DNA of 64,000 nt, taken from sequence record PP658200.1; one strand, 5' to 3'. Below, piece by piece: positions 2,284 through 48,480 of the stretch. Under the pieces are notes generated by a model, which saw only the letters and a program-made list of their open reading frames with translations, was not told the DNA's origin and made no database searches. The translations under genes and the position numbers were made by a program. How positions within the stretch are numbered: the first letter of the stretch is position 1; each line of letters begins with the position of its first letter. Source of the stretch: Escherichia phage HY126.

Positions 2284-3302
2284 ATCTTCGAATAACGAGA
2301 TAATCTCATTTTAGCATGCAACCCACTTGAAATATTCTGTTTCATATATTCTAAAATTTCTTGTGGTGTTGCATTTTCTTTCATTACCATATCATTCACA
2401 TCCTTTGATCTCCATGGAGCTCGATCCCAGAACATGACACGTTCGCCTGCATCAACTAATCGCTTCATGCGAGCTATAGTATCTGGATGCCTAGGTTCAT
2501 TATCCATTACCCATACCCGACGTTCTTTAAATGGTACCACATCTAAATCTATTGAGCCGCCTGTAATAGCGATTGCATTGGGTATGAATAAACTATCAAT
2601 AGGGCCTTCCATTACCCAGACGTCTCCTTCCTTAACACGTTCAACACCATAAATTTTTGTTGCAGACTCAAACGCTTTAATAGTGATATATTTCTGAGGA
2701 GCATCTTTACGAAGTGCACGTCCTTGGAATGACTCGGCCTTCCCGTCTTTATTAAAAATAGGAATCACTAAACGCGGTTCAGGAATCTCTTTCTTATATG
2801 TGCCGGGTTGAATCTTGTTGACCAATTTAGGCCATTCTAATGTGAACCATAATCTGTTCCATGATTCTTTAGGAATGCATCGAGACTTAACATATTTCAC
2901 AATAGGATGCTCTTCAGGCAGCTTGTCCAGACGAGAACAAGACGGCAAAGAATTTATAGTCTTTTTCTCCGGTTCTGGTTTATGTTCAGGAACCTTTTCA
3001 ATCTTTGGTTCCATTCTAGCTTTTTCTTTACGAACTTCCATTAGATATTCGCGATAAAGCTCTTCATCATACTCCTTTAAGTATCCGGAAATTGTATTGT
3101 GGTATTGACAGTTATAGCAATGTACATTACCAGGAGTACCGCCATAATACCAACCGCGAGCTTTCATTGCATCTGTCTGAGAGTCGCCACAAACTGGACA
3201 TCGAAATGTTAATTTAAATGTGCTTGAATTATTGATTTGTCTAAAACGAGGTAGGTGAGAAAACGCACGATAAGCAAATTCATTATCTATCCATTCAGCC
3301 AT
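2280..3302 (-). CDS. 61: DNA primase gp61
   Basis: 340 aa; zinc ribbon CPVCGD...CYNC and Toprim region closely match T4 gp61 as recalled. Confidence 0.95.
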   Translation of the reverse strand: MAEWIDNEFAYRAFSHLPRFRQINNSSTFKLTFRCPVCGDSQTDAMKARGWYYGGTPGNVHCYNCQYHNTISGYLKEYDEELYREYLMEVRKEKARMEPKIEKVPEHKPEPEKKTINSLPSCSRLDKLPEEHPIVKYVKSRCIPKESWNRLWFTLEWPKLVNKIQPGTYKKEIPEPRLVIPIFNKDGKAESFQGRALRKDAPQKYITIKAFESATKIYGVERVKEGDVWVMEGPIDSLFIPNAIAITGGSIDLDVVPFKERRVWVMDNEPRHPDTIARMKRLVDAGERVMFWDRAPWRSKDVNDMVMKENATPQEILEYMKQNISSGLHAKMRLSRYSKI

Positions 3303-3341
3303 AGTATTCTCCAGAGGCCTTAAATTAATAAGGCCATCTTA

Positions 3342-3809
3342 TCACAACTTATTAATATTTACTTTAATTCGCTTTCTTTTCTTGGAAGGAATTTGTTCGG
3401 GACCTTTATTTACGACTGCACCTGTAGTAGTTCCTGATGCAATAGCTTGAGGACTGCCACCTGAATCACCAGCAACCATATCCTCAAATAAAGGGAGTTC
3501 TTTAAATATTTCTTTCTGCTGTTCTTCGGTAATGTTATAGCGTGAAGCTACAGCACTCCAAGCAGACATCATTGAGGCCATTCCATTAAGACCTGGAACA
3601 GTGCTCATCATTCGCTTCATTGAACGAACTGAAGCATGAAAAGGTGTATAAGCCGCTTTCTCTTCGGGAGTAGAAGGACGTTTAAGAACACTTCCACGTT
3701 CATCGATGATTTTGGCTTCGTATGCTTTCCATTCGGTAAAAGGTTTTTGCATTAGTCGAATAAACTTATATGCGTAAACAGAATCTATTGCAGTGTTAAT
3801 AATACCCAT
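3342..3809 (-). CDS. hypothetical protein (T4 61.1 region)
   Basis: Minus ORF; start refined to MGIINTAID with AGGAGG SD; C-terminal basic KKRKRIK tail. Confidence 0.55.
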   Translation of the reverse strand: MGIINTAIDSVYAYKFIRLMQKPFTEWKAYEAKIIDERGSVLKRPSTPEEKAAYTPFHASVRSMKRMMSTVPGLNGMASMMSAWSAVASRYNITEEQQKEIFKELPLFEDMVAGDSGGSPQAIASGTTTGAVVNKGPEQIPSKKRKRIKVNINKL

Positions 3810-3828
3810 AGGTACCTCCTGAGTATAT

Positions 3829-4026
3829 TTAATCAATTACAAAGATTGCTTTGTCACCATTTATATCCGTGACTTCATATGTAGTGCCTTCATACTGTGG
3901 AATATTCCAAATTACACCATCATTAGCTTTTACGCTAATATGGCATTGGTGTTTTGAAACAACTTCGTAATCTTCAAAACTTGTAAAAACACTAATTTTA
4001 GAACCAGTGCAAATTGCAGTAGTCAT
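3829..4026 (-). CDS. hypothetical protein (65 aa)
   Basis: Minus ORF tiling between neighbours; no motif recognised. Confidence 0.5.
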   Translation of the reverse strand: MTTAICTGSKISVFTSFEDYEVVSKHQCHISVKANDGVIWNIPQYEGTTYEVTDINGDKAIFVID

Positions 4027-4027
4027 T

Positions 4028-4687
4028 TTAACCTCGATTCATAAATGCATTAAATATTTGGTCATCAACAGAAATTTCTAATTCAGCTTCAATTGTTTCA
4101 GCCTTTTCTTCAGGTGGTAATTCGTATCCACACACTACAATTTTTTCATCGATATCAAAATATACAGAAGCAATATGATTAATGTTATTTTCAGTTAAGT
4201 CTAAATCAACATCAACATCTTTTTGACCTACACTTAAAGGATAACTAATACGGGTTATTTTATTATCTTTAACAAAGAGTCCACCGACATACTCTGTACT
4301 ACGTTTGAAGTTTACACGTTTCCGAAATGAAAGATATGATGCATCTTTACCGTGAGCTCGGCTCATAGGACATAATGAATAGCTAGAATAAGAGATGTCA
4401 AATCCTACACCTTCAATATGAGCCAACGCGTCGTGATTAAACCAATTATAATCATATGCCAAATCCATTATATTGTAATATGTGAAAGGCACCGGATTAA
4501 CATCATACGTTGTACCTTTAAAATCTGCCCAGGCAACGATTTCGTTATCTTTAACAATTACAAAAATTACACCAATATGGTATCCGTTATTATTTTCATT
4601 CGGCGTTATATTATAACATTGTGCATTAGGAAATTTACCATATTTAAATGGCGCATTTTTGTGCATATAATAAATCATATTATTCAC
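4028..4687 (-). CDS. hypothetical protein (219 aa)
   Basis: Minus ORF, overlaps sp stop by a few nt (coupled); no motif recognised. Confidence 0.6.
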   Translation of the reverse strand: MNNMIYYMHKNAPFKYGKFPNAQCYNITPNENNNGYHIGVIFVIVKDNEIVAWADFKGTTYDVNPVPFTYYNIMDLAYDYNWFNHDALAHIEGVGFDISYSSYSLCPMSRAHGKDASYLSFRKRVNFKRSTEYVGGLFVKDNKITRISYPLSVGQKDVDVDLDLTENNINHIASVYFDIDEKIVVCGYELPPEEKAETIEAELEISVDDQIFNAFMNRG

Positions 4688-4973
4688 CTGTGATTTCGGT
4701 TACGATATCTTTGTTATCGAAATTAGGGTCACAATACAAAACATAATTGTACTGCATGATACCGCCAGACTTAAGTTGTTCAACAACTTTATTAACCATA
4801 TTAGGACGGTCTCGTTTAGTGATGTTCATGATATCAGAGAAGATTTGTTGTTCAACATCTTCTTGATTTGCAGTCATTGACCACTCGCAGAGGTCTTTAT
4901 CATAACCTGCCGTAACTGGAGCTGGTGCACATGATACTGCGAGTAAGATTGCTGCCAATGATAACTTTTTCAT
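4680..4973 (-). CDS. sp: spackle periplasmic protein (superinfection exclusion / lysozyme inhibitor)
   Basis: 97 aa with signal peptide; GYDKDLCEWSMTA...KSGG.MQYNYVLYCD matches T4 Sp as recalled. Confidence 0.85.
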   Translation of the reverse strand: MKKLSLAAILLAVSCAPAPVTAGYDKDLCEWSMTANQEDVEQQIFSDIMNITKRDRPNMVNKVVEQLKSGGIMQYNYVLYCDPNFDNKDIVTEITGE

Positions 4974-12516: not shown

Positions 12517-13677
12517 TCATTCTGGGTACCTCAAAGCGTCGTCAGAGTTAGTTATATCAATAATAGATATAGAGTTTTCTGATAACCCATTTTTAGATAA
12601 TTGACGTTTATAATATCTTTCACAATATGTACACGTCGTCCCACAGATTTCATTAGCACAATCGAAATCTGGATGTCTGAACCACCTTTTTTCTAAAAAG
12701 CCATCTAACAAAGAGGTTTCAATATTTACCGTATGTGAAAACTCGGTCTCATTTTCAAGAGTGAAAATGGTCTCTAAAGGCTTCCACAATTCCAACAAAT
12801 TACCTTCAAATTTTTCGGAAGCATAAGCTTCAAGAACTTTCAAAATGTAGTCTGTGCTACCTGTACGTCCTGAAACTTTGAATTGAGTGATACCAATATC
12901 ATTATAAAGTTTCAAATCTTGAGGACGAACAAAACGAGTTCTCAACCAGTTAAATGGATCTGTATCACGAGCTTTAATGCAGTGTTGCATTGGATATCCA
13001 TTTAAGGATTTAGCATCATCAGCGGTAACATCAGTACTATGGAAAATATAGCAAGAGTCACGATAGCTACAATGTGTTGTATACCCTTTACCAGCATTAG
13101 AACAGAACTCATTTACAAGAACTTCAAATATTATATTGTTCTTATTGCAAAACTCTGCTGCACGCTTCAGGAAAGAAACCGAACGGTTCTTATGAATTCC
13201 ACAGCAGACCTTTTTGATATTATACTGGTCATGCAAGTATTTGATTTGAGTTACAGCATCGACATGTAGAATTGTTGAAACTTCAATCTCAATGTCTTTA
13301 TTGACTTCACGAACAATTTCCATAACAACAGGGTTAGCGATAGTAATACGCCATACGCCTATTGACCAAAGATACTGAACATAATCCTGAATAGCTTTCT
13401 TCTTCCACTCAACTAGTTCTCTTTTTGAACCAGGATTTATCGTGTTGAGTGTATAGTTAAAGCAAATACCTAATTCGTTACAACGTTTAACGTAATCTTC
13501 TAACATCTTTTTGTCAACGTCAGGAAGCCTAAAATCAGGTCTGGCTGCTACAAAAGCCATTTCTCTTGTAGAGCCGTATACTTCATTTATCAAGCTATTA
13601 GGATAAGTTTTATTGAGCTCTACGATTTTATCAAGAAGAGCTAAATCAAAATTCGTTCCGATTTTAAAAGTATTCAT
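12517..13677 (-). CDS. peptidase-U32-family-like protein (TIM-barrel, Cys-rich; possible Fe-S enzyme)
   Basis: 386 aa; N-terminal …EVYGSTREMAFVAAR… and …EVLVNEFCSNAG…C… resemble U32 signature regions; many C-terminal Cys; assignment from motif memory only. Confidence 0.65.
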   Translation of the reverse strand: MNTFKIGTNFDLALLDKIVELNKTYPNSLINEVYGSTREMAFVAARPDFRLPDVDKKMLEDYVKRCNELGICFNYTLNTINPGSKRELVEWKKKAIQDYVQYLWSIGVWRITIANPVVMEIVREVNKDIEIEVSTILHVDAVTQIKYLHDQYNIKKVCCGIHKNRSVSFLKRAAEFCNKNNIIFEVLVNEFCSNAGKGYTTHCSYRDSCYIFHSTDVTADDAKSLNGYPMQHCIKARDTDPFNWLRTRFVRPQDLKLYNDIGITQFKVSGRTGSTDYILKVLEAYASEKFEGNLLELWKPLETIFTLENETEFSHTVNIETSLLDGFLEKRWFRHPDFDCANEICGTTCTYCERYYKRQLSKNGLSENSISIIDITNSDDALRYPE

Positions 13678-44656: not shown

Positions 44657-44869
44657 TTAATTTTGGCCAGTATTTATTTTTCGCCTTTGGACGGCCTTAA
44701 CATCTGTGAGGTATTTTTCCAGCTTGCGCTTGCGTGTATAATCAGCTTTAGAACCAGTTTGACGGATATCCTCGTTTAAATGAGAAATAGAATGTCCTAA
44801 TTCTCTTCGGATTTCATCCAATTGGGTTACAGTAAGATTACGAAGTTGTCTTTCGTTTAATTGCTGCAT
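44657..44869 (-). CDS. hypothetical protein (70 aa, rI.1 position)
   Basis: Minus ORF between tk and rI. Confidence 0.5.
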
Positions 44870-44896
44870 ATATACCTCTTGGTTAGATATTAGTAT

Positions 44897-45478
44897 TTAT
44901 AACAACCCTGTCAAATCATTCCAATGCTTCCGGCATAATGACACATATCTATCAGTATCACCAATTTCAATTTGACTGCCATCTGTAATTGGAAGTCCGT
45001 CTTCCGTGACTCTAGCTACCATTGTGGCCTTTTTACCACAATGACAGACACCTTTAAGTTCAACAAGCTTATCGGCAATAGCCATTAATGCTTGAGAACC
45101 TTCAAATAGATTACCTTTAAAATCTGTTCGTAGTCCATATGCCATTACCGGCACATTGTATACGTCAACAATACGACTAAGTTGATACACCTTTTCAGTA
45201 GTTAAGAATTGAGCTTCGTCAACAAATACACAATGAATATCCTTTTGTGCTGCAGCCCATTTATAGAATTCAAAGATATCCATGTCTTTTGTAATTATAT
45301 TGGCGTCCTGACGAATACCAATACGAGAGACTATTTCACCTTTTGAATCGCGAGTATCAATAGCAGGTTTAAGAACTAATACACCCATTCCGCGTTCTTT
45401 ATAATTATGCGCAGCAGTCAAAAGAGAAGCAGATTTTCCAGCATTCATTGCTGCATAAGTAAAAATTAAACTCGCCAT
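44897..45478 (-). CDS. tk: thymidine kinase
   Basis: 193 aa; Walker A AMNAGKS, VDEAQF, C-terminal zinc motif CHCG…CRKH. Confidence 0.95.
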   Translation of the reverse strand: MASLIFTYAAMNAGKSASLLTAAHNYKERGMGVLVLKPAIDTRDSKGEIVSRIGIRQDANIITKDMDIFEFYKWAAAQKDIHCVFVDEAQFLTTEKVYQLSRIVDVYNVPVMAYGLRTDFKGNLFEGSQALMAIADKLVELKGVCHCGKKATMVARVTEDGLPITDGSQIEIGDTDRYVSLCRKHWNDLTGLL

Positions 45479-45479
45479 C

Positions 45480-45668
45480 TTAGTCCTTAGTTAAATTTTC
45501 TAAATATGTTTCTAAATCATTTTCAGCTTTATCGATAGATTTTACTAATTCGTAGTATGTTTCAGCATCTCCATAATCCGAAGCCAATTCAAAAGATAAA
45601 TCTCGTTCTAAACTAATAATTTCGCTGATTAAAAATCGTATTTCATTCTTTTGTTCGCGAGTAATCAT
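45480..45668 (-). CDS. hypothetical acidic protein (62 aa)
   Basis: Minus ORF. Confidence 0.45.
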   Translation of the reverse strand: MITREQKNEIRFLISEIISLERDLSFELASDYGDAETYYELVKSIDKAENDLETYLENLTKD

Positions 45669-45871
45669 AAGGAATTTATATAATCAATAAGTTCTTGTTC
45701 TTTATCGTCGAAATCTTTACACAGTTCTTCGTATTCGTCGGTATTAAAAGGACCGCATTCATCGCAAACTTTTTCCAATTCACTATTTTTATCCATAACT
45801 TCGTGAATAAGAGAAAACAGTCTGTCTTTTTGTTCTTTACTTAAACTCATAACCATGTAACCTTTAAGCAA
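45665..45871 (-). CDS. hypothetical acidic protein (68 aa)
   Basis: Minus ORF, ATGA-coupled. Confidence 0.45.
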   Translation of the reverse strand: MLKGYMVMSLSKEQKDRLFSLIHEVMDKNSELEKVCDECGPFNTDEYEELCKDFDDKEQELIDYINSL

Positions 45872-46074
45872 TATTCTTCTACATGTTGTTTACGACCTTT
45901 CTTATCAATAAAGGTATATTCAACGAATGTTCCAATATAGTCTTTATCTACATCATGTGGACTATTAATTGGGCATTTAGTACGGCAAATGCGTTCCCAT
46001 TGACGAATAATTACTGCCTTATTCTTTGGGTCATACGGATGTGGATAATGTATATTCATAATAATGGTTCCCAA
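45847..46074 (-). CDS. hypothetical protein (75 aa)
   Basis: Minus ORF; start context uncertain (overlap). Confidence 0.45.
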   Translation of the reverse strand: MGTIIMNIHYPHPYDPKNKAVIIRQWERICRTKCPINSPHDVDKDYIGTFVEYTFIDKKGRKQHVEEYCLKVTWL

Positions 46075-46553
46075 TCAACAATCACAATTTCTAGTTTAGT
46101 GGAATACGTATCTAAAATCTCTTCAATGACATCCCAGTTTCCACCACCGATACCTGCACCAATTCTTGGCATATAAATTACAGGCTTTGTTATCTTATTC
46201 TTTCCGAATTCATTTAATTCTATTATACAATTCATTAAAGCAGAGTACTCAAAATTAGGTCCCGGCTCAAACTGTGTATAAAGATTAAAGCAATAAGCTT
46301 TATGGGTCTTAAAATATTTTTCATAAACCGAATAAGTCCCGAGTTTAGACTCGTCTCCGAATTCGGTTTGAAGTTTATCGGCTTCCAGAATTTTTGGATA
46401 AGCCTTTGCTAATTGTCCTGCTACACCGGCGCCCATTGTATGAAAACAATTACACCCATGAGCAATATTATTACCTTTAGAAAACAGGGCGACAATATCG
46501 CCCTTGATATAGTTTTTAATCACTTGCTGCAAGTCCTCTAGTATAAGAGTCAA
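46056..46553 (-). CDS. macro-domain protein (ADP-ribose binding / hydrolase)
   Basis: 165 aa; …IAHGCNCFHTMGAGVAGQLAK… and …IGAGIGGG… resemble macro-domain signatures. Confidence 0.7.
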   Translation of the reverse strand: MTLILEDLQQVIKNYIKGDIVALFSKGNNIAHGCNCFHTMGAGVAGQLAKAYPKILEADKLQTEFGDESKLGTYSVYEKYFKTHKAYCFNLYTQFEPGPNFEYSALMNCIIELNEFGKNKITKPVIYMPRIGAGIGGGNWDVIEEILDTYSTKLEIVIVDWEPLL

Positions 46554-46863
46554 CTAGACGGTCCACCATAGAATTGCATGCTGCCTTATCTTTAGGTTCC
46601 GCCACCGAGCATTCTAATATTTGCCATTTTTTATAGTATCTTTTAATTAAGGTAGACGCCTTGAACCTACTAGACGCCCCATCTTTTTCTCCGTCTTTAT
46701 ACGCATATAACAATTTTTGTGAAAAATCTACTTTACACTCTTGACTTTTACCACAATAATCAGACGCCGTTCTGTTTGTATACTCCGTTACATCAGTATA
46801 TGTAGTATTAGCAAGAGCGCTAAATGAAACCAAGCCAACTATTAAAGCCAACATTTTGGTCAT
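46516..46863 (-). CDS. periplasmic protein with signal peptide (115 aa)
   Basis: Signal peptide MTKMLALIVGLVSFSALA, four Cys; T4 vs position but identity unverified. Confidence 0.55.
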   Translation of the reverse strand: MTKMLALIVGLVSFSALANTTYTDVTEYTNRTASDYCGKSQECKVDFSQKLLYAYKDGEKDGASSRFKASTLIKRYYKKWQILECSVAEPKDKAACNSMVDRLVDSYTRGLAASD

Positions 46864-47402
46864 TCTTTTATTTCCAGTAGTTTATTTGATTTAAGGTAAT
46901 TAGCCTTTTCTAGGACTTCAGAAGCATATTTACTTCCAGCACTTGTCTTCCATCCCGCGTTATATGAGGATATAGCTTTTCTTATATCCCCGTTATGTAT
47001 ATTTAACCAATAAGAAAATTCGATATAAGCCCATCTGGCTGAATTAGACCGCTTAGATAGCATTTTCTTAATTTGGGCATCAGTCATATTATAACCAAGC
47101 TGGTTAATTCTTGCCCTCATTGTTGGTAGATAATTTTGGAACATTCCATACGCATGGTGACCTTTCTTATCTTTAAGATTAATACCGGCAGATGATTCCT
47201 GCCATAGTATTGCGGCCATTATGTATCCAAGTCCTTTCTTATGCATATTTTCATGCGTTTTAAATTTTCCATCCTTAGAAAACTGTTCCCCAAACTGATA
47301 AGCATAATTCAAGTTATCGAGTTGGACATTACTAAAAGTATGCTCGGAGCTATGTGCTGATAATGAAAGAGCAAATAGACCAGCGAGTAGTGCTTTTCTC
47401 AT
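46860..47402 (-). CDS. soluble lytic transglycosylase-like protein (periplasmic)
   Basis: Signal peptide plus SLT motifs: LWQESSAG (catalytic E-S), YGMFQ, SSYNAGW. Confidence 0.7.
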   Translation of the reverse strand: MRKALLAGLFALSLSAHSSEHTFSNVQLDNLNYAYQFGEQFSKDGKFKTHENMHKKGLGYIMAAILWQESSAGINLKDKKGHHAYGMFQNYLPTMRARINQLGYNMTDAQIKKMLSKRSNSARWAYIEFSYWLNIHNGDIRKAISSYNAGWKTSAGSKYASEVLEKANYLKSNKLLEIKE

Positions 47403-47410
47403 GTTTACCT

Positions 47411-47869
47411 CTAGATTTTAATCACTGCTTTAGAAGCTTTTCCTGGTAGTCGTTTACTGTTAATAATAGCCATTCTGCATTGAAGAGTCTTCATTTTGAA
47501 TGCTGGATTTTCGCGACAAACTGTAAGTCCTAACCAAAGATTTCCATCAGTTATTTCTAAACGGCCTGGGCGATATTCGACACCTTCGACAAAATCTTCA
47601 TCAACATCTGGACGTGCTGGCATTGATAAAAATTCTGCAACTTCTTTAACATGATTTTTTACTTTACGAAATAATTCAAAAACGTAATTCTCATCTATTT
47701 CTCTCTGGATGGCACGATCTAAGAGATGTTGAGAATACTTGATATGAAAGCCTGGTAGTCCAAGAGACTTTGCAGCATCTTTTATACTGGCATTTATTTT
47801 GCGGAACTCCGTTTCAAAGATTCGACGGAGTTTATTACGGCGGATAAAAACGTCTGAATTGATAGTCAT
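47411..47869 (-). CDS. regB: endoribonuclease RegB
   Basis: 152 aa; good match to T4 RegB as recalled (MTIN…FIRRNKLRR…KYSQHLLDRAIQREID…RLPGKASKAVIK). Confidence 0.8.
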   Translation of the reverse strand: MTINSDVFIRRNKLRRIFETEFRKINASIKDAAKSLGLPGFHIKYSQHLLDRAIQREIDENYVFELFRKVKNHVKEVAEFLSMPARPDVDEDFVEGVEYRPGRLEITDGNLWLGLTVCRENPAFKMKTLQCRMAIINSKRLPGKASKAVIKI

Positions 47870-47896
47870 TTTGATTTCTCCTCTAGTTGACAGGTC

Positions 47897-47926
47897 TATA
47901 GTAACACAACTAGAGGAGAAGTAAAC
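47897..47926 (-). promoter_or_regulatory. early promoter with SD-sequestering inverted repeat (regB)
   Basis: GTTTAC-TTCTCCTCTAGTTG-…TACTAT…-CAACTAGAGGAGAA-ATCAAAATG; 14-nt halves are perfect complements. Confidence 0.55.
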
Positions 47927-48224
47927 TACTCTTTGAAAGGAATTAACTTTTTAACTGCTTTAGATACTTCGTCACGAACCTGGTGGAAGTTCTTGAGCTG
48001 TTCAAGGCGTTGTTCGTAATACGCAATCTCATCTTCTTCAAGACAATCGTCAGCGTCTTCTTTCAGATATGCCTTGTACTCATTAAAGAGGGCCCATAGG
48101 CGATTCTCAAAGTCATCAAGGCTTTGAATTTTCTTGTGCTTCGGAACAAGGCCAAAAGGATTGCTTTCAGTTATGCGTCGAGATGCTTCATAATGAGTTC
48201 CAAAGCCTGATAGGATTTGAGCCA
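47926..48224 (-). CDS. hypothetical protein (about 99 aa)
   Basis: Start refined to MAQILSGFG with GAGGAAAAA SD. Confidence 0.5.
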
Positions 48225-48480
48225 TTAGTATTTTTCCTCTGGTTGAAATACCGCACGACAAGCCCACATACTAGCTTCCTTTAGGCGTTCTTTAGCACAG
48301 TTCAATTGGGACAAAGCCGTCAGAGCTTCAGGAGTATTTGCTGATAATGCTTCTTCTGCCAGGGCGTCTAGAATAAGTCCTAAACGAACTTCGGCATCTT
48401 TAATAGCGTTCACTTTACCGATTTTATCATCGGTATGCGGCTTGTAGCCTTTGATGTCTTCAATCGACATAAGGAATTTC
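48225..48480 (-). CDS. hypothetical protein (about 85 aa)
   Basis: Start refined to [10 protein letters not shown] with GAGGAAA SD; overlaps upstream ORF by about 20 nt. Confidence 0.4.

Follow-up and report, generated by a model that had tools for sequence, protein, structure and literature searches.

A Mosigvirus ortholog of T4 tk.4 (adfM) encodes a glutamine-type, stand-alone macrodomain with a likely role against DarTG2

What does a small macrodomain do for a T-even phage? The question is raised by an intact minus-strand open reading frame (ORF) at 46056..46553 of a 64,000-nucleotide stretch of Escherichia phage HY126 (PP658200.1), which we refer to in its entirety as the window. A sequence-only reading of this DNA had proposed that the ORF, which encodes 165 amino acids from the first in-frame TTG, specifies a macro-domain protein that reverses or reads ADP-ribosylation, or that counters host defence systems that ADP-ribosylate. 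The window belongs to a Mosigvirus (an RB69/HX01-like T-even phage), and its best matches over the 3.5 kb around the ORF are the Mosigvirus genomes JQD51, HX01, PNJ-6 and SHSML-52-1, at 96.6-98.3% identity. The family, fold and biological role of the gene are already known, the role having been established genetically in T4 in 2025. The explanation that we consider likely is that the ORF is the Mosigvirus adfM gene, and that its product is a Gln-type macrodomain that clears thymidine-ADP-ribose from phage DNA as a countermeasure to DarTG2.

The protein is a macro-domain protein by sequence, by profile and by predicted fold, and the assignment is well beyond chance. Both motifs that the earlier reading quoted are present in the translation, IAHGCNCFHTMGAGVAGQLAK and IGAGIGGG, the latter corresponding to residues 121-128 (46140..46163, minus strand). 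The Pfam Macro profile (PF01661) matched with an E-value of 2.2e-6 and 28.1 bits (gathering cut-off 22) across profile positions 2-117 of 118. A single-sequence phmmer search of the PDB returned Bacteroides BT1257 (6e-11) and yeast Poa1p (1e-8), and a family profile built from 79 homologues returned BT1257 (2e-18), TARG1 (1.4e-16), SCO6735 (1.3e-14) and Mycobacterium tuberculosis DarG (1.5e-13). An AlphaFold2 model, made from an input alignment of 78 sequences with the T4 sequence left out, had a mean predicted local distance difference test score of 95.5 and a predicted template modelling score of 0.91, and has the three-layer alpha/beta/alpha arrangement expected of a macro fold. The closest neighbours in structure and sequence are all of the ALC1-like class (TARG1, DarG, SCO6735, Poa1p), clearly apart from MacroD-like and viral macrodomains. 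Hence, as judged from its sequence and its predicted fold, the protein is a stand-alone macrodomain of the ALC1-like class.

We compared the window protein with its T-even counterparts. Identity is 98.1% to RB69 Tk.4 and 84.5-85% to T4 Tk.4 (AdfM; NP_049723), with which the alignment covers 155 of 155 residues without gaps. As in T4, the gene lies between vs and tk.3, with the same layout of overlapping start and stop codons, and all residues conserved in the family are identical in the two proteins. The differences are that T4 is a Tequatrovirus rather than a Mosigvirus, that there are 24 substitutions, including a lysine in T4 at residue 126 of the glycine-rich loop where the window protein has a glycine, and that T4 uses an ATG start where the window gene uses GTG. 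Based on the 85% identity, the identity of the conserved residues and the synteny, the window gene is to be read as a Mosigvirus adfM, orthologous to T4 tk.4, and its product would be expected to do the same job as T4 Tk.4.

That job is known from T4 genetics. The target of DarT2 is thymidine in single-stranded DNA, whose ADP-ribosylation blocks replication and is reversed by the macrodomain of DarG2 (PMC11825919). T2 and T4 derivatives that lack the NADAR factor AdfN are still resistant to DarTG2 (PMC11825919), indicating that a second anti-DarTG2 factor must exist. When a T4 transposon library was screened on E. coli expressing DarTG2, tk.4 alone among the T4 genes was depleted, and deleting tk.4 cleanly made T4 sensitive to DarTG2; the authors gave the gene its new name adfM, for anti-DarT factor Macrodomain (bioRxiv 10.1101/2025.11.20.689424, November 2025). 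The infection of defended hosts with a knockout phage that the sequence-only reading had called for has thus since been carried out in T4, as reported in that preprint. Together with the 85% identity and shared gene order of the window protein, the T4 result supports the proposal that the gene counters a host defence system that ADP-ribosylates.

The residues expected to form the ligand pocket are conserved in the family. The HGCNC motif (H22-G23-C24-N25-C26) is encoded at 46446..46460 on the minus strand (CAT GGG TGT AAT TGT); C26 is invariant among 78 homologues, and H22, G23, C24 and N25 are each conserved in at least 90% of them. In a MAFFT alignment, N25 falls on DarG N22, PhiKZ AdfM N23 and SCO6735 N27, and H22 on SCO6735 H24, the numbering of the SCO6735 chain in the PDB having been checked against that of the paper describing it. 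The glycine-rich phosphate-binding loop, assigned by alignment, is G122-A-G124-I-G126-G-G128 (46140..46160, minus strand). G122 and G124 correspond to SCO6735 G126 and G128 and are both invariant among the 78 homologues, while G126 falls where TARG1 has D125 and most relatives have alanine. Conservation of the glycine-rich loop and of the asparagine pocket suggests that Tk.4 binds ADP-ribose through this loop and the H22/N25 pocket.

Residue 84, in the sequence NLYTQ, is glutamine (codon CAG, 46272..46274, minus strand); at this position TARG1 (K84), DarG (K80) and PhiKZ AdfM (K78) have their catalytic lysine, and SCO6735 has its essential Gln85. We placed this column using a hidden Markov model alignment for TARG1 and BT1257 and using MAFFT for DarG, PhiKZ gp104, SCO6735 and BT1257, with DarG sequences taken from a PDB search with PhiKZ gp104. 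The column reads LITK in TARG1, FPTK in DarG and PhiKZ, MIGQ in SCO6735 and BT1257, and LYTQ in Tk.4. Q84 is invariant in 78/78 homologues and in 76/76 bacterial relatives; the latter come from a one-genome-per-species scan that found 252 relatives, from which the best 80 loci were kept, with scan patterns built from the family's own motifs and a sample biased toward close relatives.

SCO6735 offers a precedent for a macrodomain with glutamine at this position. Thymidine-ADP-ribose that DarT has placed on DNA is cleared by SCO6735 more quickly than by DarG or TARG1, and SCO6735 also counteracts DarT toxicity; its Q85A and Q85E mutants are inactive, N27S is nearly dead, and G128E is much reduced in activity (PMC9411070). 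In the mechanism proposed for it, Asn27 locks Gln85 in place, Gln85 positions the distal ribose, and the reaction is started by an activated water (PMC9411070). For the window phage, the sequence of events would be as follows. Host toxin DarT2, released during infection, would modify thymidines of single-stranded phage DNA with ADP-ribose and block replication. Tk.4/AdfM would bind the ADP-ribose using its glycine-rich loop (G122-G128) and H22/N25 pocket, cleave the bond between ribose and thymine, and return the DNA to its unmodified state, in the manner of an orphan antitoxin. The chemistry would probably not be the lysine route of DarG, with Q84 at the lysine position buttressed by N25, as in SCO6735. 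By analogy with SCO6735, Tk.4 would itself be a hydrolase of thymidine-ADP-ribose, and Q84 and N25 would be required for that activity.

Several observations weigh against this explanation. We found no enzymatic assay of a T-even Tk.4 in the papers that we consulted, and the preprint says only that hydrolysis "seems likely". A single preprint, using a single DarTG2 system, supplies the genetic evidence, and the knockout was made in T4 rather than in a Mosigvirus. Tk.4 lacks the catalytic lysine of DarG and TARG1. It also lacks SCO6735 K34 (Ala32 in Tk.4), K89 and the mobile loop that is longer by 5-6 residues in SCO6735, such that the SCO6735 mechanism is transferred by analogy. Lastly, SCO6735 Q85A inhibits DarT in vitro even though it is catalytically dead, and the same holds for DarG K80A and TARG1 K84A, SCO6735 being the strongest of the three (PMC9411070), indicating that protection without hydrolysis is possible. 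Tk.4 might therefore protect mainly without catalysis, by binding and inhibiting DarT2, or by sequestering ADP-ribosylated DNA or an NAD-derived ligand. AdfA neutralises DarT1 by binding (PMC11825919), the classical catalytic Lys/Asp pair is absent from Tk.4, and the existence of two deeply divergent tk.4 alleles in near-identical Tequatroviruses could reflect co-evolution with a protein partner. We nevertheless consider protection of this kind unlikely. The SCO6735-type signature (H22, N25, Q84, G122, G124) is unchanged in all of the bacterial relatives, whose sampled loci have no DarT neighbour, and conservation of the pocket in bacteria without darT argues for selection on an enzyme pocket; moreover, the C-terminal toxin-binding domain of DarG is absent from Tk.4.

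Clearance of thymidine-ADP-ribose also has to be weighed against two quite different substrates. The legacy "phosphatase" (A1pp) label would make Tk.4 a hydrolase of ADP-ribose-1''-phosphate or O-acetyl-ADP-ribose, working in metabolic or RNA-repair clean-up. PHROG 335 carries this label and JGI labels homologues as O-acetyl-ADP-ribose deacetylases; however, these labels are homology transfers rather than experiments, with "phosphatase" deriving from similarity to Poa1p, which appears in the phmmer alignment to have serine, not glutamine, at the Q84 position. We know of no pathway in T4 that makes ADP-ribose-1''-phosphate. Macrodomains are promiscuous on such substrates (PMC9503650), but sensitivity to DarTG2 is the sole reported tk.4 phenotype (bioRxiv 10.1101/2025.11.20.689424), and we regard a small-molecule role as very unlikely. 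Still more improbable, in our view, is that Tk.4 erases or tunes the phage's own Alt, ModA and ModB ADP-ribosylation or RNAylation of host proteins, as the earlier reading had suggested in noting that T-even phages use ADP-ribosyltransferases on host proteins. T-even phages do encode such transferases, and modA and modB are annotated in T4; however, neither is linked to tk.4 and neither has a match within the window, and Alt, ModA and ModB modify arginine. To our knowledge, ALC1-like macrodomains act on acidic-residue esters and thymidine adducts, not on arginine N-glycosides, and we know of no report of one cleaving arginine-ADP-ribose. SCO6735 and TARG1 do also strip ADP-ribose from proteins (PMC9411070), but tk.4 read counts fell specifically with DarTG2, and no fitness effect was reported on hosts without DarTG2 (bioRxiv 10.1101/2025.11.20.689424). 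Reversal of the phage's own modifications is thus left without support.

The ORF proposed by the sequence-only reading is real, and its 5' end at 46553 is the most upstream possible start, which overshoots the likely start by 30 nucleotides. More distant phage homologues begin to align in tblastn searches at residue 11 of the 165-residue ORF. The annotated lengths are 155 amino acids for T4 tk.4 and 154 for RB69 tk.4, the RB69 start being the same GTG; PNJ-6 annotates tk.4 as a 468-nucleotide coding sequence, and the T4, RB69 and PNJ-6 annotations all begin at the equivalent of 46523. A Shine-Dalgarno-like GAGGA (46534..46538, minus strand) lies 10 nucleotides upstream of this GTG, inside the end of vs, in the context TCTTATACTAGAGGACTTGCAGCAA immediately followed by GTG. 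Based on the alignments of distant homologues, the annotated lengths of 154-155 residues and the position of the GAGGA, the start is placed at the GTG at 46523..46521, and the tk.4 coding sequence is most likely 46056..46523 on the minus strand, with 155 codons followed by a TGA stop (46058..46056). The in-frame extension to the TTG at 46553 (46524..46553, minus strand) coincides with the 3' end of vs in another frame and is probably untranslated. Start-site annotation also varies among relatives: PE37 tk.4 is annotated as a truncated coding sequence of 131 amino acids with its start 87 nucleotides inside the gene.

The gene lies in a tightly packed minus-strand string in the order regB, vs.1, vs, tk.4, tk.3, tk.2, tk.1, tk, which is the same in T4. 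The upstream neighbour is vs (valyl-tRNA synthetase modifier; 46516..46863, minus strand), identified from its ORF and from annotations, with 67.5% amino acid identity to T4 Vs. Its TAA stop (46518..46516) is just inside tk.4, such that the tk.4 GTG overlaps the end of vs within GTGATTAA. The downstream neighbour, tk.3 (45847..46059, minus strand), encodes a protein with 100% amino acid identity to T4 Tk.3. The tk.3 ATG (46059..46057) overlaps the tk.4 TGA stop in the sequence ATGA, suggesting that the two genes are probably translationally coupled. In a consensus scan of 44800..48400, promoter-like sites numbered 10 where 12.7 were expected, which is no more than chance, and we assign no dedicated promoter. 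Based on the tight packing and the scan, we read tk.4 as one cistron of a longer transcript in the overlapping regB-to-tk string. Inside the 5' end of tk.4 (46486..46504, minus strand), a G+C-rich hairpin of 8 bp, AGGGCGATATTGTCGCCCT, precedes a T-rich run and resembles a terminator. It overlaps the codons for KGDIVALFS, and there are four terminator-like sites in the scanned region versus 1.8 expected; the hairpin is probably a chance match, and it could modulate read-through from vs. In T4, vs was the gene most strongly depleted in minimal medium compared with LB (bioRxiv 10.1101/2025.11.20.689424), so that vs and tk.4 are adjacent, overlapping genes with separate conditional-essentiality phenotypes. 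Note that some records call vs "valyl-tRNA synthetase", and that PNJ-6 labels tk.3 "putative ABC transporter ATP-binding protein". We also considered whether the window encodes another macrodomain or a NADAR protein; tblastn matched tk.4 alone, and this possibility was rejected.

Relatives of the window macrodomain occur in 2,800 phage records by tblastn, about 380 of which, at 80% identity or above, are close T-even orthologs. About 41% of myoviruses encode a macrodomain (PMC9503650), and the breadth of this distribution is therefore unsurprising. In comparisons with T4, PE37 and RB69, the segment from tk.4 to tk.1 (44897..46523 of the window, minus strand) stands out as a hot spot of mosaicism. 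T4 and PE37 share ~99% DNA identity across regB, vs.1, vs and tk, and 46-67% inside tk.4; there are thus two deeply divergent adfM alleles (58% amino acid identity) within Tequatrovirus, in backgrounds that are otherwise 96-100% identical. The window DNA is 70-82% identical to that of T4 from regB through tk.4, versus 93-98% across tk.3-tk.1, and RB69 lacks tk.3 and tk.1 at this locus. All of the tk.4 alleles compared (T4, PE37, RB69 and the window) retain Q84, N25 and the glycine-rich loop. Record labels for the orthologs vary between "phosphatase", "macro domain protein" and "hypothetical protein"; the first and last of these should be replaced.

The bacterial relatives among the best 80 loci come from Rhodobacterales, Verrucomicrobia, Hyphomicrobiaceae, Desulfobacterales, Bacteroidota and other groups, and share 35-45% identity with the phage protein. 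They are mostly stand-alone proteins of ~150-160 amino acids; all of them carry H22, C24, N25, C26, Q84, G122, G124 and W130, and most have a loop that is three residues longer than that of Tk.4. We rejected the possibility that they are DarTG antitoxins: they are stand-alone, their gene contexts vary, and Pfam searches found no DarT family match among the ten neighbours sampled, although a minority linked to darT is possible. The varied neighbours without a DarT match argue against recent capture of the phage gene from a DarTG operon. Two of the loci have unusual surroundings. In a Bacteroidales metagenome-assembled genome (CBDDKV010000002.1, locus 2703..4968, plus strand), four same-strand genes abut or overlap. 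Their products are an NAD-salvage enzyme, nicotinate phosphoribosyltransferase (Pfam 3e-56), and three ADP-ribose erasers of different kinds: a NADAR protein (2e-52), a Gln-type macrodomain like Tk.4, and a macrodomain of the MacroD type (2.8e-42). Such a cluster could be an island for repair or counter-defence, or it could belong to a prophage. In Vibrio aestuarianus LMG 7909 (locus 2762..4955), the Tk.4-like gene is directly downstream of a tyrosine integrase gene (Pfam 1.5e-20), with an ORF weakly resembling SecB after it on the other strand, suggesting that the macrodomain rides on an integrative element.

The window also carries a candidate for a second counter-defence gene. The minus-strand gene at 4028..4666 is an ortholog of T4 gp61.2 (67% amino acid identity) and matches the published description of AdfA, a counter-defence protein that binds DarT1. 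From the arginine/histidine pattern described below, we take AdfA to be gp61.2. Residue 164 is arginine in RB69 (NINRIAS), and histidine at the aligned site of T4 and at residue 164 in the window (NINHIAS). RB69 escape mutants acquire R164H in AdfA and thereby neutralise DarT1 (PMC11825919). The histidine in the window protein is the escape state, and the window phage may therefore be naturally more resistant to DarTG1 than RB69. T-even phages, as tk.4 illustrates, layer orphan-antitoxin counter-defences against DNA ADP-ribosylation: AdfA as a toxin binder, AdfN as a NADAR protein for guanine adducts, and AdfM as a macrodomain for thymine adducts. The basic picture of tk.4 is unchanged by our analysis, in that it is an ordinary, widely conserved T-even gene with a long-standing fold annotation. 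What is new is modest, namely the placement of Tk.4 at the residue level, as a Gln-type, short-loop macrodomain distinct from both DarG and PhiKZ AdfM.

SCO6735 (PDB 5E3B) and BT1257 (2FG1/2AFC) are Gln-type macrodomains of the ALC1-like class, to which Tk.4 is only ~30% identical. SCO6735 Q85, N27, H24, G126 and G128 correspond to Tk.4 Q84, N25, H22, G122 and G124, and as in this subclass, glutamine at the lysine position is held by a conserved asparagine. However, SCO6735 and BT1257 are chromosomal proteins whereas Tk.4 is encoded by a phage, and they carry a 5-6-residue insertion after the glutamine, whereas the loop of Tk.4 has the length of that in TARG1 and DarG; the longer "mobile loop" is the defining trait of the SCO6735 subclass (PMC9411070). 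The DNA-positioning residues also differ, with K34 replaced by Ala32 and K89 falling in the loop segment that Tk.4 lacks. In human TARG1/OARD1 (4J5R/4J5S), the K84/D125 dyad corresponds to Q84/G126 of Tk.4, and serine stands where Tk.4 has N25. A more speculative proposal, to which we attach limited and tentative weight, is that T-even AdfM, instead of being a DarG captured by the phage, represents a third, minimal ALC1-like architecture: lysine-less and Gln-type, with the short loop of DarG and TARG1, without the DNA-positioning lysines, derived from stand-alone bacterial macrodomains not associated with darT, and using water-mediated chemistry. Divergent tk.4 alleles would then differ in the DarT2 variants or the substrates (DNA thymine, RNA uracil or protein) that they neutralise.

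DarG (Thermus aquaticus, 5M31/5M3E; M. tuberculosis, 5M3I) is only ~21% identical to Tk.4. Models of DarG were the sole matches to Tk.4 in our defence-library and NCBIfam searches, and both matches cover the macrodomain part alone: NCBIfam NF048014 gave E = 1e-7 and 31.6 bits over positions 4-146 of 338, far below its equivalog cut-off of 250, and the PADLOC DarG model gave E = 9e-9 and 33.2 bits over positions 4-145 of 329. Tk.4 has Q84 where DarG has the catalytic K80, and it lacks the C-terminal DarT-binding domain, the 155-residue protein ending 8-10 residues past the macrodomain. DarG adjoins darT, whereas the neighbours of tk.4 are vs and tk.3. A tblastn search of 72,556 plasmids with Tk.4 gave 35 weak matches, none annotated as DarG. 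Tk.4 thus falls short of DarG in model score, toxin-binding domain, catalytic lysine and adjacent darT, and its sequence marks it as a distinct, minimal, Gln-type variant of the same structural class.

Another phage protein, PhiKZ gp104, has also been named AdfM; it removes thymidine-ADP-ribose in vitro and protects against DarTG2, with N23 needed and K78 in the active site, and this chimallivirus macrodomain is imported into the phage nucleus (PMC13309987, Cell Rep 2026). Its biochemistry establishes the macrodomain anti-DarTG2 strategy in phages, and like T4 Tk.4 it is a stand-alone phage macrodomain that defeats DarTG2. By contrast with Tk.4, gp104 is DarG-type, with lysine (K78, in FPTK) at the position of Q84; its best PDB matches are DarG (9e-25 and 3e-19), and gp104 (12518..13006 of its own stretch) aligns with Tk.4 by BLASTP with E = 6e-4 over 23 residues. 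Because Tk.4 has Q84 at the position of DarG K80 and has barely any sequence relation to PhiKZ AdfM, inhibitor or mechanistic work based on the DarG lysine is not expected to transfer to it. The name AdfM was coined independently in two papers for these barely alignable proteins, a collision that will confuse annotation. One name is in use for what, by sequence, are two separate lineages within the ALC1-like class, a Lys-type lineage represented by PhiKZ gp104 and a Gln-type lineage represented by T-even Tk.4.

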